Positions 30,940 to 42,900 of a stretch of DNA of 49,865 nucleotides are shown here, piece after piece; position 1 is the stretch's first letter; each line of letters opens with the position of its first letter. The stretch is taken from positions 1 through 49,865 of the forward strand of contig CAWDOY010000002.1 of assembly GCA_963803975.1 (NCBI GenBank), given 5' to 3'. The position numbers are program-made. Origin of the DNA: an uncultured delta proteobacterium. Lineage in GTDB: Bacteria; Desulfobacterota; WTBG01; CAIYCZ01.

Positions 30940-33900
30940 TGGGGAATTATTCTATAGTTTCAATCGAGGCTATACTTTATAAAAGAAAATCGGTTTGTTG
31001 TCAATGGTTTTCAGCGGCGGCTATATGTCGCCGGACCCGTTTAAAACATCTCTGCGTCAGTCCAGCGGACCATCTCGCCGAGGCAGGGCAGGCCATCATG
31101 ATGCCACATCATCGAGGGCGTCGGCATCTTGCCCGGCGGGCAGATGCGTGAAACCCCGAGGCGCGCAAACAGATTAAACATCTCCGCGCGCCGCTCCTCT
31201 CCCACCGCAAGCCCGGCATTCTGCATATACCCTTTGATGGGTGCAAGATAATTGACAATATCTTTCAGGTCCGGCAGCGGAACAATGCGGATAAACCGGT
31301 GCAGAGGAGAGGAAAGAAATTCCTTCAGCGGCTCATACACGACGGTCCACGACAGGTTTTCTGCCGCCCGCATTAATACATTCTCTCCCGCAAGCTCCCT
31401 GAGCTCATAGGTATTGTGCAGGTGCCTGAGCACTGCTGCATCTTCAATATTGAGCCGTGCCGGAGGAGCCTTCTGCTCCTGGGTTTTCATTGCCTGCTCC
31501 AGCAGTGGCATAAATTCCTTGGGGCTCACCGCGCCGCCCTCTTCCAGAAAATAGACCTGAGGCGAGATGCAGGCGAACTGGTCAAAGGTGGACACATCAT
31601 AGGCTATTTTTTGCGCAAGCCCGGGGGCAGCTTTTTTATTTAGCGCTTCCCTTCCCACCGCCCCAAAGCCGATCCTGTGGCTGTGGGAGATTACCCTGGT
31701 GCCCGGCGGCACCCGCTTGCACACAGAGGTGCAGGTTGCTTCGCTGCCGTAGACAATAATAACGCTGCAGTGGTTAAAAAGAATTTTTTCAATTTCCTCA
31801 TCGCCGCCATGCCAGGAAAGTATCGCCAGGCAGTTGCCTAGTTCCGGATCAATTTCTTTCAGCGTTTCCGCGTACAGGGGCGGAAATATGGGCTCTTCCC
31901 GCGAAGCCTTTCCCATAATCGGGGCCTTCACCAGAAACGAGCGCATCACGCTCAAATGCGGGAGACCGGGAATATTGGAGGAAAATATGGCAGCTGTCAG
32001 CTCAGGTCCTGTTGCTTTTGAATGGCAGCCGCGCTCTTTTGAATAATGAAACCCGTCGAGAAATGCCGGGTCTCCAAGCTCTGAGCGAAGTGCCCGCAGC
32101 AGGTCGTCCCTGCGGGAGGAGAGATGCTCCACCCTTATGGATTCCCTGACCATCTCGGGAGAAAAGCCGGTAAACAGGGAAATGGCCTCAACCGCAGCAA
32201 CTTTTTTCGGGGATGTATCATCAAGCCATTGCTCTGAAGCCCGGTCCAGAATGTCTGCGATGGTTGCAACCGGCAAAGATTCAAGATAGGCTTTTTTTTC
32301 TTTTAAAAAGGCTATGACCTTCTCCAGGAACCGGGGCGTGACGACAGGAAACTCCACCCGCATAACCGCGTCTTGCTCGGGGAATTCATGAACGGAATAG
32401 CTGAAGCCTGAAATTTCCGCGCGGAGCGGTTCCGGAAGGTAGTAGCCTTTTACCGCGAGCTCTCTCATGACTTCTTTGTTATCTCCTCTATAGAAAGCGA
32501 ACAGCCGCGTGCCTCCGAGCCGCGGGCACGGCCGAGAATCTCAAATCCCTGTTCGCAGCGCCGGCCGATGTCATCGGTCTGAATGGCAGCAACCCGCTCC
32601 AGATTCGTCAGGTCAAGATGCCAGAGAACACCTTTTTCACCAAGCGGAACCTCTTTCATGGTGCGTGGGTCAAAAACCAGCGTCCTGGTCCAGGGCGGGT
32701 TTTCCTTGCAGCGTTTATCCGGAGAGCCGTTGAAATGATTTTTAAGGGCATTGTCATAAAATTGTGAGCCAAGCTCGGTCATACCCAAAAGATTAATACT
32801 CATAGCGGGCGGAATCCCCAGGAACCTGCTGCCAAGGGAGAGAAATTCATCCCGCGCTATCTCTCTCTCCTTACCCTTATACCCACCAGCATCAAGCGTT
32901 CTGCTTCCGGCTGGAAGGTTGAAGGCAAGCCCCTGCAGCGCGCAGTAGTCAAAGAAGGTTAAGAATCCAAGCGATGCGCCAATGAGCGCGATTGAAATGT
33001 TTTCGTGCTCAGCGAGCTTCAGCTCTTTTGCCAGCTCCTCGGGAACGAAGCCCCGTTCTCCTATCAGAAAGCGGCTTCCCGGCAGACCATATTTTTTTTT
33101 AAGCTGCTCCATGCCATAGGCCATTATCATGTGCGGTGCTTTTTCCGGGGGCGGGGCAATTATGAGAAAGCGATATTTGCCGCTGTCGGGGAACAGGCAG
33201 CGCCGGGCATTTTCAAGGATCGCGGTATCCATGAGCTCAAGACCTTCTTCAGAAAACAGGGCGCGGCCTTTTTTAACCCCTTGGGTGGTGCCACTGGTGC
33301 TGAAGATCCGCTTTGCTTCAGCCGGCGGTTTTGAAAAAAGCTCAAACAGTTTGAACCCTTCTGTTGAGATGCCGGGAATGTCGCGCCAGGAAGAAACCTT
33401 GCCTGGTGCAGCGCCCCTTTTATCACAGAGTTTCTGATAGATCGGGATATTTGTATACTGGAACGAAAACACTTCAAGCGCCAGTCGGTTGAAGGCGTTC
33501 TCGTCGCGATTTGTAAAAGAGCTTTTAATATATTCTGTTATGCGGTGATAGATAGTCGCCATAATGTAATCAAGGCTGAAAGCTGGCCGCTGTGCGCTAA
33601 AGATGCAGAGCTACCGCTTTTTTTGTCAGGAGAAATTCGATGAAATCAAACAGCTCGTTTTCTTCCAAAGATTTATCCGCAAGATGCTCCGTGATGGTTT
33701 TAATTCCCGCGCAGGAGTTTAAAAACGCTTCTATACCCTTTCGTTTGACACCGTATTCTGCGGCAATACGCGCGGCATTCTCTGCTGACACAAGCAGTTT
33801 TGGCCGCAGGTTCTTTGCCGGCCGCGGCAGGTCCTTAAAACCCGGCGTGATCTTCACGTCTTGTGCCGCATAGGCAAACAGACAGGGCTCGCAATTGAAT

Positions 33901-39900: not shown

Positions 39901-42900
39901 GTCTATTTTAAATTTTCCGAACTTTGGCGTCCGCGTTACCCGCATCACGTTAAAATACTGCCAGGGATCAAGCGGCGTTGACCAGTGCGGGTATTTTTTA
40001 CACCAGGCCTCTGCCATCTGGAAGTCCTCCCGGGTCAGGTTGTGCGGGTAGTGAAAGGTCGGGCTCAGGTAATCGCCGGAGGGTCCCATAAAGACGATGT
40101 CTTCCGGTTTTGCTACGGCAAAGAGCGGCGTATCAGGATAAATCCGTATGCCGAAGACGGTGAGAATATTGTCCGGCTGCGGCATGCTTTCCAGAAACTT
40201 AAAACCGTCGGCGATGGTCTCCCTGGTTTCCCCGGGACCGCCTAACAGAAGCTGAAATGAGGTGGCAATGCCGGCTTTTTTATAGCAGGCGGAGGCCCGG
40301 GCAATATCCGCCTGGGTGAACCCTTTACCCATCCGCTCCAGCATCTCCTCTGAGGCGACATCAATCCCCACGTCCGCACCGATGCAGCCCGAGCGCGCCA
40401 TGAGCGAGGCCATGTCATCAGAGATGCCCACCGGATTTACGTTGGCGTACCATTTTATTTTTACCTCCCGGCGGATGATCTCTTCACAGATGGCGCAGGC
40501 ATGGTTTGTGGGGAAGTTAAAGACGCTGTCAACAAAGAAAAAATAGTCAAGGTTCCAGAACCGCTGCGCTTCAACGATTTCATCGACTGCTCTCCGGGGC
40601 GATTTCAGACGGTAGGTTTTGCCGTCAATGCGCGGATGCTCGCAGTATATGCACGTAAAGGCGCAGCCCCGCTTGGTCTGGAGGCCGATATAACCTTTTT
40701 TCTGGATATACTTTTCATAATCAAGCAGATCAAACGCTGCCGGCGGCATCATTTCTACATCCGGTATGAGCTGCTGCGGGTTGCAGGTATAGCTCCCGTT
40801 TGTCTGATAGACAAGGCCCGCGATATGCTCATAGGATGAGCCTTCGGTGAGGGCACGAGCCAGCTGCACGCAGGCTATTTCGCCCTCACCCTGGATGCCG
40901 AACTTGAGGCCAAGGTATTTCAATGCTTCTACCGGAAACAGGGAATATCCCGGGCCGCCGACAACAAACGGAACATCGGTGAGCGTCTTTAAAAAAGCAA
41001 CTACTTCCCTGATGTCAGGAAGGTAGTAGCGCAACGCCGACATGCAGGTATTGTCAATATTGCGGATGGACAGCCCCACAAGCTGAGGCTTGAATTCATT
41101 AATTGTTTCCTGAAATATTCTCTGCTCTTCTTTTTGCGAAAAGAGAAACATCCGGTCAATAACCCTGATGTCATGCCCCGCCTTTCTCAGGCTTGAAGCA
41201 ACAAGCGATAGACCGATGGGAGCAGCAGGTATGGGCCAGCGCTCCTGGTTGGTATTTATTAAAAGTATTCTCATCAACGCCCTCTCAGATCCATAAAAAC
41301 CAATAGCGATAAATACTTTACATGTAAACCATTTACATATAAGTAATGGTTTTGCCTTGATTTGTCAACCAAAAACTATTGCATGGATATATGTCTGAAA
41401 TTGCTTGACTTAATACATGTGGCTTGCTGTTGGGGCGGGATACTTTCCCTGCTGTGGGGGGCCGGGAAGGGTTTTAATTACCATCTCTGGCCTTGAGAAA
41501 CAGATTGATGAGATTTTTATCAAGCTCTTCTTTGCGGGATATTTTCAACTGTTTTTTAAACTCTGCTAACGAATACCACTGCCCGTGCCATGGAACGGTG
41601 CCCTCCGGCGCTTCCATATTTGCCGAAAGCATGGCGGGTCACCTCTCCGGCATGCTCCACGTACCCCACGTTTCTCACGCAGAGCACAATCTGCTTTTCA
41701 ACAATTCCCGACACTAATGACCACTGAGCATCATCAATCTGCATACAGAAATCTGCCAGCCGCGGAATAATATCTTCCCGCTCCTTCTCTACCCTGCCAA
41801 GGTTAACAAACACGACATTACCTATCAGGCGATGGCTTTTAAGTGCTTTTACAAACAGGCTGATCTCTTCGGGGTTGAGGCGGGGATGCTCCATCTGCAG
41901 AATCATGTGACGATTGGCGAGCGGGTAGATGTGGGTAAACACCTCAATATCAGCTGGATTTATGTCCCGGCCTAAAAAAAGCGTGTCTGTCTTGATACCG
42001 TAGACAAGTGCCGTGGCAAGGCGCTGGCTGATTTTGTGCTCCTGGGCAATCAGGTATTCTGCCAGGATGGTTGAGGTTGCCCCGTAGTGAACCCGGATAT
42101 CACAGAACGGGGCGTCACAGGTTTCCATCCGGGGGTGGTGATCGATAATGATATCTGCCCTGATTTCAGGATCGCCAAAGTAAAAGGGCTGGACATCAAC
42201 CATGGCGATCCGGGAATATTTTTCCAGGTCCGAGGCAGTTATTTTCAGCAGCTGTATGTCCAGAAGCTGCATCATGACCTGATTTTCGTTTCTGGTAACT
42301 TCACCAAAGGTAGCAATAGGCGCTGTTGTGCTGGTCCGGCCCAGAAGCGTCCGCAGCGCCAGCGCGCTGGCCAGGGCATCGGGGTCAGGGTCATGCTGGG
42401 TGAGAATAAGGATGTGCTCATGGCCGCTGGCGAGCTGCTGAAGCGCGGTCGCCTTTTTACGATTTTCTATCTTTACCCAGCATCGGGAAATATTGCCGAC
42501 GATGAGATCAGAGAGGGGAAGAAACGACACAGTATCATGGCGCTCACGTTCAGCAGTTGCGTCATCAGCATCGGTAAGCACCAGTATTGGGACTGCTGCA
42601 CACTGGAAACGCAGCGCTTCCAGCTGCTGGCTCATAGCGGGGGTACCGGAACAATCGAAAATTACCCGGTCCTCGGCAGTGAGTGCCAGTTCTCCGTAAA
42701 ATGTATTTGACAGCTCCATCTGTTTCAGAATGGTAAACTGTTTTTTCTCTACCGGTACCGGCACGGCGGTGTTATTCACGACAATTGCATGGTCCAGGGA
42801 CCGGAGATACCCTTTCAGCAGGGGCACGATATCCGGGTTCTGTAAGATAAGTATAGTGCGCATGGCTGTCCTATGGTGCGAGCTGAAGAACTGCTATGAA

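Follow-up and report, generated by a model that had tools for sequence, protein, structure and literature searches.

What could be made by an operon that joins a LeuA-like synthase and a LeuCD-like dehydratase to B12 radical SAM proteins, a flavoprotein and LuxE/LuxC acyl activation and reduction genes? The question arises from the window, a 49,865-nucleotide stretch from an uncultured delta proteobacterium, in which the genome-wide survey's note had described a six-gene cassette. The genes do lie where it had placed them, on the minus strand, but they amount to eight ORFs in one operon (41277–31041, gene calls on the window), since the aconitase subunits have separate genes and a second B12 radical SAM gene is present. 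In 5′ to 3′ order, followed by the neighbouring tRNA gene, they are:

39886..41277, minus strand: B12-binding radical SAM protein 1 (rSAM1), 463 aa, PF02310 and PF04055, accessory
38554..39834, minus strand: DRE-TIM acetyl-CoA:2-oxo acid C-acetyltransferase (LeuA/HCS superfamily, own subfamily), PF00682 and PF22617
37210..38496, minus strand: LeuC/HacA-family [4Fe-4S] dehydratase large subunit, 428 aa, TIGR02086 and TIGR01343
36617..37126, minus strand: LeuD/HacB-family small subunit, 169 aa, TIGR02087
34945..36558, minus strand: B12-binding radical SAM protein 2 (rSAM2), the core radical SAM protein, 537 aa, PF02310 and PF04055
33597..34856, minus strand: TrxR-fold flavoprotein, 419 aa, PF07992
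32465..33562, minus strand: LuxE-like ATP-dependent acyl-protein synthetase, 365 aa, PF04443
31041..32468, minus strand: LuxC-like acyl-thioester reductase, 475 aa, PF05893 (E 6e-87)
30870..30945, minus strand: tRNA-Asn(GTT), found by ARAGORN, the operon boundary and outside the pathway

The intergenic gaps in the operon are 34–88 nt, the LuxE and LuxC reading frames overlap by 4 nt and the operon ends 96 nt from the tRNA-Asn. Its GC content (49–54%) is near the genome mean (50.5%) and thus gives no hint of recent acquisition. A domain search of the operon ORFs identified no acyl carrier protein, thioesterase or alcohol dehydrogenase. As the note had remarked, there is no luciferase: the eight ORFs include neither luxAB nor luxD, and a bioluminescence lux operon was rejected. 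A phosphonate biosynthetic cluster was rejected as well, since tblastn with one annotated PepM query gave no PEP mutase match at E 1e-5 in this genome (98% complete).

The operon is real, and seven of its eight genes form a conserved core. Of 401 phylum genomes, 13 encode the flavoprotein, and precisely these 13 rank highest for LuxE (best E ≤ 2.3e-81, against 1.6e-75 for the next genome). All 13 carry rSAM2, which is present in 27 genomes in total; the other 14 have a sister copy but no cassette, and none of five rSAM2-only genomes tested has a cassette-type synthase. With the flavoprotein as query we recovered the pattern previously reported for LuxE, namely matches in 3/3 family relatives and 0/38 other genomes of the class. 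The core is also found in 11 genomes from six other families of the phylum (37–53% identity, with only 28% for the flavoprotein of genome G207). The order synthase–LeuC–LeuD–flavoprotein is kept in eight of these 11, and a single protein, P0155, fuses the LeuD-like subunit to the flavoprotein. The cassette genes are split over two loci in G369 and three in G207, and the cassette synthase was not found in the fragmented assembly of G404. Homologues are also named in Myxococcota, Wallbacteria, Binatia, Thorarchaeota and Thermoplasmata, seen there without genomic context. The four high-GC genomes of the note were not recovered with their gene neighbourhoods. The hosts of the conserved gene set are sediment-type bacteria. 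rSAM1 is accessory: it directly precedes the synthase in the three family relatives (G018, G019 and G020), and the loci from the 11 other genomes hold no orthologue (the best are 24–28% paralogues).

The synthase is, as claimed earlier, a gene distinct from the genome's LeuA (contig C8), CimA (contig C49) and C3 paralogue, and a quick tree groups the cassette synthases in a single clade, separate from LeuA, CimA, NifV and the phosphonate synthases (SH-aLRT 88–94). TIGR02090, named in the note as the closest model, is indeed the best NCBIfam model, but its 419.6 bits fall under the cut-off of 484.75. Residues R21, T175, H204, H206, H294 and Y310 are conserved in the family. We read the substrate pocket of 120 homologues at five aligned positions, in comparison with Table 1 of PMC12961565, which lists A/D/A/M/S for HphA, A/N/A/F/S for hHphA, H/R/T/S/H for homocitrate synthase (HCS) and L/E/S/N/E for IPMS. 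The window enzyme has S81/D141/V143/I171/T228, and the genome's LeuA, as a positive control, reads L/E/S/N/E. The main types among the homologues are SNVFS (67), SNAFS (14) and TDIMT (7); site 1 is S, T or A in 120/120, and neither Arg nor Glu is found at site 2.

The label 'homocitrate synthase' does not withstand this comparison. A LysS/Lys20-type enzyme was rejected because the tabulated His/Arg pocket is found in 0/120 homologues and TIGR02146 scores 305 bits against 413. NifV-type homocitrate and phosphonomethylmalate synthases (controls W/S/G/R/N and W/S/S/R/H) were rejected because strand 6 has F, I, M or Y at the Arg position and TIGR02660 scores 366 against 463. 2-Isopropylmalate synthase was rejected since the pocket is not L/E/S/N/E in any of the 120 homologues and the C-terminal regulatory domain of LeuA is absent (426 aa, compared with 517 aa for the genome's LeuA). 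The SNVFS and SNAFS pockets share three to four of five sites with hHphA as tabulated, and the window's SDVIT is identical to HphA at one of five, the others being conservative. The pocket resembles those listed for cyanobacterial HphA/hHphA and suggests a 2-oxo acid substrate with a bulky, neutral side chain, albeit the likeness, at five aligned positions, may be convergent. No HphA-annotated record is among the 60 listed of 321 plasmid rows. An annotated haloarchaeal CimA reads F/E/L/C/H, with Phe at site 1; it is the one CimA control that aligned cleanly, the genome's CimA aligning poorly at the site and the Leptospira enzyme being left out. From the pocket, an aromatic, phenylpyruvate-type side chain has nearly an even chance, a medium or long alkyl chain is a substantial possibility, pyruvate or 2-oxobutyrate would be a quite improbable substrate and 2-oxoglutarate a most improbable one.

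The next two genes encode a LeuCD/HacAB two-subunit aconitase, with the three cluster cysteines, DH, DSH, the GSSR serine and scores above subfamily cut-offs (large subunit, 448.7 over 410.15 bits for TIGR02086 and 438 over 385.7 for TIGR01343; small subunit, 130.3 over 108.95 for TIGR02087). The large subunit keeps the DH, DSH, GSC, CxxC and SNRNFxGR motifs and the small subunit the serine of GSSRE[S/T]. Methanogen homoaconitase HacAB has an Arg in its small-subunit loop. It was rejected here, and with it the 'homoaconitase' label, since the cassette loop (HPPxxF[S/T] in an alignment of 11; HPPDYFSL in the window) has no Arg and both Hac cut-offs are missed (HacA_Meth, 401 against 550 bits; HacB_Meth, 121 against 230).

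The flavoprotein gene occupies a leuB-like position, and within the family lies directly 3′ of rSAM2. No LeuB-like gene was matched in 15 cassette loci or in the window, so that a standard 2-oxo acid elongation module, with its β-decarboxylating dehydrogenase, was rejected. The flavoprotein has 64 homologues down to E 1e-56, the next appearing only at 1e-15. Its model (pLDDT 91.7) adopts a TrxR/AhpF/FNR fold (Z 24.1, rmsd 7.3, 286 aligned). Over the 111 sequences scored for conservation, CxxC occurs anywhere in only six, the window copy reading TYMGYE in that region, and the NAD(P)H motif is degenerate, with G168 alone conserved (106/111) and positions 169–173 variable. The 'thioredoxin reductase' label is thereby lost: thioredoxin reductase was rejected for want of the redox-active CxxC (TIGR01292, 82 against 343 bits) and TrxR-type ferredoxin–NADP+ reductase (FNR) because the second-domain glycine motif is not kept. 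R29 (109/111), R31 (106/111) and K34 (100/111) are conserved. TrxR-type FNRs likewise lack CxxC. Low-molecular-weight thioredoxin reductases, and relatives of theirs that lack CxxC or do without NADPH, such as FFTR (6gna), the Gloeobacter protein (5j60) and TrxR-type FNR (3lzw), share the two-domain fold and FAD motifs at 17–25% identity, whereas the cassette protein has neither CxxC nor an intact NAD(P)H motif and adds a basic RxRWVKxYK insert, a KFGxxPxLFAY tail and a C-terminal domain of about 90 residues. It probably represents an undescribed TrxR-fold family.

LuxE and LuxC read as an acyl reductase pair. The TSGTT and C-terminal RGCSL of LuxE align with Photobacterium phosphoreum LuxE (7xc6_E), the motif being kept in cassette copies, and FDQxxC of LuxC aligns with 7xc6_A, its Cys being present in 13/13 cassette-genome copies. 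Both catalytic cysteines and the ATP-binding motif are thus common to the two systems, and the genes are translationally coupled; the likeness is distant, however (E 5e-15 and 2e-14; 80 of 750 and 53 of 550 bits with NCBIfam), and the operon differs in having no luciferase or LuxD-type gene among its eight ORFs. CxxxCxxC and a B12-binding domain make both rSAM1 and rSAM2 cobalamin-dependent radical SAM proteins. Their nearest models, TIGR04072 'lipid biosynthesis B12/rSAM' for rSAM1 (319 bits, cut-off 360) and TIGR04190 for rSAM2 (247, cut-off 500), were rejected as equivalogs, both scores being under the curated cut-offs. rSAM2 has a family-specific HxHxQ and C-terminal C491/C495/H498/C514 (alignment of 25), and its cassette copies fall on the same side of a branch with SH-aLRT 87. 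The best folds for its model (pLDDT 91.8) are TsrM, CysS, MgmA and TokK (12–17% identity); as the nearest folds are methylases, rSAM2 is a predicted methyltransferase. Since its sisters occur in 14 cassette-free genomes, the substrate of these cannot be peculiar to the cassette; rSAM2 itself may work ahead of the synthase or on some other molecule.

Outside the family, 10 of the 11 genomes have a U32-type gene after LuxC. It is absent from the operon in the window's family; the only U32 (33%) of the window's own genome lies in a type II FAS locus on contig C12. The U32 proteins after LuxC have PF01136 and the four-Cys motif, as do the hydroxylases UbiU/UbiV, TrhP and RlhA described in PMC10990095, which also proposes phenylpyruvate as co-product of prephenate-dependent hydroxylation; they form a distant subfamily (25 of 534 bits with the TrhP model). 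The 27 non-cassette rSAM2 loci include a CrtI-like gene in 15 cases, an MMPL gene in eight and a U32 gene in four, and G207 has LuxE–LuxC–U32–rSAM2 amid MMPL, DUF2229/activase, CrtI-like and acyltransferase genes. DUF2229 is found in 26 of 27 rSAM2 genomes, a count of little weight as the search covered rSAM2 genomes only. The CrtI-like and MMPL neighbours of the sister genes hint at a lipid product. The link is indirect here, since the window's own genome has no DUF2229 match, no CrtI-like gene at E ≤ 1e-30 and no cassette U32. The U32 gene usually closing the operon, the LeuD–flavoprotein fusion and these lipid-type surroundings come in addition to the earlier note.

Synteny, co-occurrence, the intact LuxE/LuxC cysteines and literature searches that found no paper describing the operon support the note's idea of a conserved, undescribed route to a modified acyl chain or aldehyde. 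We give an even chance to a dedicated biosynthetic route independent of O2, whose chemistry we infer throughout, from a 2-oxo acid via substituted malate and maleate and a flavin redox step to an aldehyde, with methylation and O2-independent hydroxylation. The synthase would condense acetyl-CoA with a bulky uncharged 2-oxo acid to a 2-substituted malate, the type of reaction being deduced from the conserved catalytic residues and the side chain from the pocket. By family chemistry, the LeuCD-like pair would dehydrate this to a substituted maleate and possibly rehydrate it to the 3-isomer. The CxxC-less flavoprotein would then replace LeuB in a flavin redox reaction on the diacid, the weakest step: most likely the maleate C=C is reduced to give a substituted succinate, ferredoxin or flavodoxin being the electron donor, whereas oxidation of the 3-malate is less likely. 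LuxE would activate one carboxylate with ATP and LuxC, with its catalytic Cys, would yield the aldehyde. In either order, rSAM2 would methylate via methylcobalamin and U32, where present, would hydroxylate without O2. The product would be a methylated hydrophobic semialdehyde, or a lactone or alcohol thereof, and from the sister-gene neighbourhoods is more likely to serve a membrane lipid or envelope component than central metabolism. More doubtful is the wider claim that the operon is a novel anaerobic pathway for a membrane-lipid building block in several bacterial phyla and possibly archaea, in which a TrxR-fold flavoprotein lacking cysteines and an NAD(P)H site would itself oxidize or reduce a substituted malate or maleate in place of LeuB. 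If this is true, the operon would plug into a wider module (rSAM2 sisters, CrtI-like, MMPL, split PlsA/Ger-like and acyltransferase genes) that could account for orphan methylated lipids in anoxic sediments.

We may wonder whether host enzymes complete a one-carbon homologation instead. A LeuB/ICDH-family enzyme would decarboxylate the 3-substituted malate made by the synthase and LeuCD, LuxE/LuxC would reduce a derived acid to the aldehyde and the flavoprotein would be no more than an FNR-like electron donor for the B12 radical SAM protein. The genome does encode LeuB-like (C49) and ICDH-like (C3) proteins, TrxR-type FNRs (also devoid of CxxC) are among the fold matches, and the flavoprotein gene directly follows rSAM2 in the window's family. 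We nevertheless consider this unlikely: the NAD(P)H motif is lost, with positions 169–171 variable, 14 of the 27 genomes with rSAM2 have a sister copy but no flavoprotein, and outside the family eight of 11 genomes place the flavoprotein gene after LeuD, P0155 being a fusion of the two. Rather improbable is a scheme starting from lipid, in which a fatty acid is C2-hydroxylated by U32 and oxidized by the flavoprotein to a 2-oxo acid, the synthase extends this to an alkylmalate, which is isomerized, and LuxE/LuxC reduce it towards a carbon-linked, glycerol-free diol/triol lipid backbone that rSAM2 methylates. It would account for a pocket that is open and neutral, the preference of LuxE/LuxC for long chains, the U32 gene next to LuxC in 10/11 genomes, the CrtI/MMPL/acyltransferase neighbours of sister genes and the TIGR04072-like rSAM1. 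Yet the window's family carries the cassette without U32, none of the operon's genes encodes an acyl carrier protein, thioesterase or alcohol dehydrogenase, and the pocket variants that combine D with M or N with F parallel the aromatic pair HphA/hHphA of the cited table.

Smaller or charged substrates fare worse. Pyruvate or 2-oxobutyrate could be taken via citramalate or ethylmalate to a citraconate-type acid, methylated and reduced to a semialdehyde; homologues are auto-named, for example, 'D-citramalate synthase' and the hydrophobic residues present at sites 3 and 4 could make for a tighter pocket. The small residue at site 1 in 120/120, against Phe in the single cleanly aligned haloarchaeal CimA, the genome's separate CimA and the synthases' own clade make this very unlikely. 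An AksA/AksDE-like elongation of 2-oxoglutarate (homocitrate or coenzyme B type), with LuxE/LuxC giving an ω-oxo acid for a thiol cofactor, which is what the note's title says if taken literally, could invoke the best PDB sequence match of the synthase (S. acidocaldarius HCS, 6ktq), the top-scoring TIGR02090 and the passed TIGR01343. It is extremely unlikely given the tabulated His/Arg pocket in 0/120 homologues, the absence of Arg both from the NifV position and from the loop of the small subunit, AksF/LeuB in 0/16 sequences examined and the missed HacA/HacB cut-offs.

The preferred route, from a bulky 2-oxo acid to a methylated semialdehyde, has partial counterparts among known systems. HphA is paired with a LeuCD-type isomerase, as in the cassette. 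Its Phe/Tyr homologation module has a LeuA-family synthase (benzylmalate synthase) with, in Table 1 of PMC12961565, a small site 1, D/N at site 2, M/F at site 4 and S at site 5; the cassette differs by lacking the dehydrogenase and NRPS and by adding the flavoprotein, LuxE/LuxC, B12 radical SAM and U32. The leucine (LeuA–LeuCD–LeuB) and coenzyme B (AksA–AksDE–AksF) pathways use the same enzyme families in the same synthase–large–small–redox gene order, but the pocket and loop residues differ, the regulatory domain is absent, and the fourth gene encodes a TrxR-fold flavoprotein, not a β-decarboxylating dehydrogenase. In the pantaphos (HiVir) pathway of Pantoea, as described in PMC7858074, the synthase HvrC and two-subunit dehydratase HvrDE are proposed to stop at a maleate, followed by a flavin enzyme, which is a precedent for a synthase and LeuCD pair ending at maleate as proposed here. 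That system is a phosphonate pathway with PepM, the Arg-bearing W/S/S/R/H pocket and an O2-dependent monooxygenase, whereas this genome has no PepM match and in the cassette LuxE/LuxC and B12 radical SAM come after.

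The operon comprises eight co-oriented ORFs on the minus strand (window 41277-31041), separated by intergenic gaps of 34-88 nt and with a 4-nt overlap between the LuxE and LuxC genes, and its end precedes a tRNA-Asn gene. The genome-wide survey's note had described a six-gene cassette; the genes exist and are co-oriented, but the count is eight, with two aconitase subunits and two B12-binding radical SAM proteins (rSAM1 and rSAM2):

First gene (-): B12-binding radical SAM protein rSAM1, 463 aa
Second gene (38554-39834, -): synthase of the LeuA/HCS family, 426 aa
Third gene (-): LeuC-like protein, 428 aa
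Fourth gene (-): LeuD-like protein, 169 aa
Fifth gene (-): B12-binding radical SAM protein rSAM2, 537 aa
Sixth gene (33597-34856, -): TrxR-fold flavoprotein, 419 aa
Seventh gene (-): LuxE, 365 aa
Eighth gene (-): LuxC, 475 aa

The GC content of the operon is 49-54%, compared with 50.5% genome-wide, and the flavoprotein, LuxE and LuxC each occur once in this genome (tblastn). As the same note had stated, there is no luciferase among the operon genes; LuxD and a carrier protein are also missing. A promoter scan returned 9 sites against 10.4 expected. Close-relative contigs from three sediment metatranscriptome runs (one study) and from one run of unrecorded kind tile the operon piecewise and span several gene junctions; since the flanks are covered as well and DNA may be present, these contigs do not establish transcription of the operon. 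Just upstream on the same strand (41556-43825, -) lie genes for a DacZ-type diadenylate cyclase and a DHH-family protein, possibly a pair that makes and breaks c-di-AMP, which was not seen upstream of the cassette in G019, a family relative. At 28896-30775 (+) a secreted-looking protein with long Thr/Ser repeats is encoded in two overlapping frames, one at 28896-30077 and another, with a PKD domain at its end, at 29279-30775; a frameshift inside the repeat, genuine or from assembly, may have split it.

The conserved core, seven genes without rSAM1, is hereafter called the cassette. The flavoprotein finds a match in all three family relatives and in none of the 38 other genomes of the class. 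A profile of 42 homologues matches 13 of 401 genomes of the phylum, the window's own included; in the same sample rSAM2 matches 27 genomes, all 13 flavoprotein genomes among them, and LuxE matches 27 at E <= 1e-20, the top-scoring 13 being exactly the flavoprotein genomes (counts that include kin and hence are not independent). Cassette identities to the 11 non-family genomes are 37-53%, with only 28% for the flavoprotein in G207. Six of these genomes carry rSAM2-synthase-LeuC-LeuD-flavoprotein-LuxE-LuxC on a single contig, G428 and G217 have the same order interrupted by contig ends, and the cassette is spread over two loci in G369 and three in G207. What G404 shows, at the start of a contig, is flavoprotein-LuxE-LuxC-U32 alone; a synthase of the cassette type was not found in it. 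In the window's family the flavoprotein is separated from LeuD by rSAM2; rSAM1 lies directly 5' of the synthase in all three relatives. A U32 (PF01136) gene comes after LuxC in 10 of the 11 genomes outside the family and in neither of two family loci examined. Gene context was obtained inside the phylum; homologues named Myxococcota, Wallbacteria, Binatia, Anaerolineaceae, Thorarchaeota and Thermoplasmata are known by name only. A search of genome contigs with the single flavoprotein gave four loci (three family members and one weak match), and plasmids gave no match. At least 27 metagenome loci were matched; the 27 listed are all short or low-identity matches to ordinary TrxR-like genes, and none was used. 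Two neighbouring genes were also rejected as members. An ADH synthase gene (above its cut-off; L099:5781-6578, G428:C253) shares 4 nt with the beginning of rSAM2 and has DHQ synthase II close by; in four other genomes tested it is elsewhere or non-orthologous; a Tes-like gene adjoining the G217 cassette reaches 148 of a 450 cut-off in a genome rich in radical SAM genes. In the same-genus genome G020 (L127, C347) rSAM1 appears as two overlapping pieces, either a frameshift or an assembly error.

The synthase keeps T175, H204, H206, H294 and Y310 in all of the best 120 homologues listed, and R21 in 116 of them, with four gaps; as these metal- and substrate-binding residues are kept, an aldol condensation is expected. 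Published five-position substrate pockets read H/R/T/S/H in homocitrate synthase (HCS), L/E/S/N/E in IPMS, A/D/A/M/S in HphA and A/N/A/F/S in hHphA (in the relevant part of PMC12961565). Mapped via alignments to 6ktq and 3rmj, the window synthase reads S/D/V/I/T, and the genome's LeuA, our control, reads LESNE as expected. The synthases of 11 cassette genomes read SNVFS (seven), SDVIT (two), SNAFS (one) and TMVIS (one, in G207, where D174 is also missing). In the best 120 homologues listed, site 1 is always S, T or A and the commonest pockets are SNVFS (67), SNAFS (14) and TDIMT (7). At site 4, NifV and a pair of synthases from phosphonate clusters carry Arg; at site 1, a haloarchaeal protein annotated as CimA carries Phe. 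In a quick tree, the cassette synthases cluster apart from all of these. Read at five positions, with HphA and hHphA represented by published residues rather than sequences and with a single clean CimA control, the pocket appears open and uncharged and would fit an aromatic or long alkyl side chain. A paralogue on contig C3 (L065:7779-10099), with a NifV-like, Arg-bearing pocket and behind an ICDH-like gene, is likely to be the genome's dicarboxylic 2-oxo acid condensing enzyme, rather than the cassette synthase.

The cluster cysteines and catalytic motifs of the aconitase pair are intact, and the pair scores above the LeuC/LeuD subfamily cut-offs and below those of methanogen HacA/HacB. In homoaconitases an Arg of the small-subunit loop binds the third carboxylate; the loop here is HPPxxF[S/T], without Arg, which agrees with a putative substrate lacking a distal carboxylate. 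On both counts the earlier homoaconitase label does not hold. Neither the window nor 15 cassette loci contain a LeuB-like gene; this genome carries its LeuB-like gene on C49 and its ICDH-like gene on C3. There is a precedent, proposed in a passage of PMC7858074, for a synthase and LeuCD homologues ending at the maleate.

The flavoprotein has 64 homologues down to E 1e-56 and the next match at 1e-15, a sharp gap that makes it a family of its own (102 representatives at E <= 1e-30 in a 50%-identity library). Residues 8-329 of its model (pLDDT 91.7) have the TrxR/AhpF/FNR fold. The name thioredoxin reductase is nevertheless misplaced: TYMGYE stands at the position of the CxxC, a CxxC occurs anywhere in just 6 of 111 sequences, and a single Gly is left of the glycine motif for NAD(P)H. 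R29, R31, K34, D246 and Y329 are each kept in 100-109 of the 111, and the basic insert may bind carboxylates. In 8 of the 11 genomes outside the family the gene comes directly after LeuD, in the leuB position, and in P0155 LeuD and the flavoprotein form one fused protein; we infer that the flavoprotein does redox chemistry on the LeuCD product. In the ESM Atlas the whole protein retrieves two unnamed Thermodesulfobacteriota clusters and residues 340-419 retrieve no usable match; by eye, the C-terminal domain resembles a winged helix. A sister family of about 320-335 aa (P0180, P0184, P0185, P0187-P0189, P0192) has a similar tail and neither the redox CxxC nor the C-terminal domain; hhalign relates it to the flavoprotein with a probability of 99.96 at 25% identity. 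In P0255 and P0125, both from Logan contigs, the flavoprotein runs on into a polyprenyl synthase domain, either as a fusion or by read-through.

LuxE and LuxC retain the cysteines found in the Photobacterium complex 7xc6, so ATP-dependent activation of a carboxylate and its reduction to an aldehyde are expected; a recent preprint restates this chemistry and, in the part concerned, demonstrates that a LuxC-like reductase can serve a pathway unrelated to luminescence (bioRxiv 10.1101/2025.08.11.669332). The rSAM2 model folds like TsrM, CysS, MgmA and TokK (12-17% identity), and methylation is its likely role. U32 proteins are supported as prephenate-dependent, O2-independent hydroxylases, with phenylpyruvate as the proposed co-product (in passages of PMC10990095); a link to an aryl-pyruvate substrate of the cassette would be speculation.

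In a quick tree with a long-branch outgroup (the synthase and U32 trees are quick trees too), rSAM2 separates into cassette, CrtI-linked and U32-linked groups (SH-aLRT 87, 99 and 92). The 27 non-cassette rSAM2 loci, several on short contigs, include a CrtI-like gene in 15, an HpnN-like MMPL in eight, U32 in four and none of these in nine. G207 has a single run of B12-rSAM, LuxE, LuxC, U32, rSAM2, MMPL, DUF2229/activase, CrtI-like, acyltransferase and a second B12-rSAM, and the closest model for rSAM1 is a lipid-biosynthesis model. The product may thus be bound for a lipid. Against a direct lipid link, the window's genome has no DUF2229 and no close CrtI-like gene, and its U32 sits apart from the operon, within a type II FAS locus. 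In passages of PMC11868695 the possible sources of branched sediment lipids include Desulfobacterota and Myxococcota; the operon is not mentioned there.

The operon is a real, conserved and undescribed biosynthetic operon. This part of the survey's claim stands, whereas its enzyme names do not; a literature search, with most subscription papers outside its coverage, found no paper on the operon. All its enzyme superfamilies are known, we found the combination in no described system, and the synthase, flavoprotein and rSAM2 are each a subfamily of their own. We give roughly even chances to a route in which the synthase would convert a bulky neutral 2-oxo acid to a substituted malate, LeuCD would take this to the maleate, the flavoprotein would perform a flavin redox step on it and LuxE/LuxC would reduce a carboxylate to the aldehyde, with B12-dependent methylation by rSAM2, optional hydroxylation and a hydrophobic product. 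Homologation completed by the host LeuB, with the flavoprotein as an electron donor, is unlikely: 14 genomes have rSAM2 sisters without the flavoprotein, which is thus unlikely to be solely a radical SAM reductase. A lipid-first order seems somewhat less probable still. The pocket disfavours a small methyl-branched acid, a route we consider doubtful at best, and a homocitrate or coenzyme-B-like route is very improbable, as none of the best 120 homologues listed has the HCS pattern; the original homocitrate synthase label falls with it. The IPMS pattern is likewise found in none of the 120.

The operon is a compact, assayable target whose synthase pocket predicts a bulky neutral 2-oxo acid and not 2-oxoglutarate. 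If the route through a substituted malate is right, the thioredoxin-reductase fold would gain a new use and LuxE/LuxC a role outside luminescence, and the operon would point to an unknown metabolite or lipid made by sediment bacteria. The analysis also corrects the database names homocitrate synthase, homoaconitase and thioredoxin reductase on cassette protein families, and probably citramalate synthase as well.

Other loci combine related genes. The FAS locus of the window's genome (C12, about 25000-58000, part in L064) is large, with ketosynthases, carrier proteins, thioesterases, MMPL, two B12-rSAM, two small radical SAM proteins and a methyltransferase; it also holds the one U32 of the cassette-associated type in this genome. 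A lipid-type module recurs in several families (L078, G207:C29:122000-141000; L103-L106; L119), with a split DUF2229/HgdD-like protein and BcrAD activase, a CrtI-like oxidoreductase, MMPL, a lipid-A-type acyltransferase and B12-rSAM. Finally, in L108 and L110 (G106 and G141) LuxE stands without an adjoining LuxC, close to BchE-like B12-rSAM genes (395 of 481 bits in G141), a LuxE/rSAM pairing distinct from the cassette.
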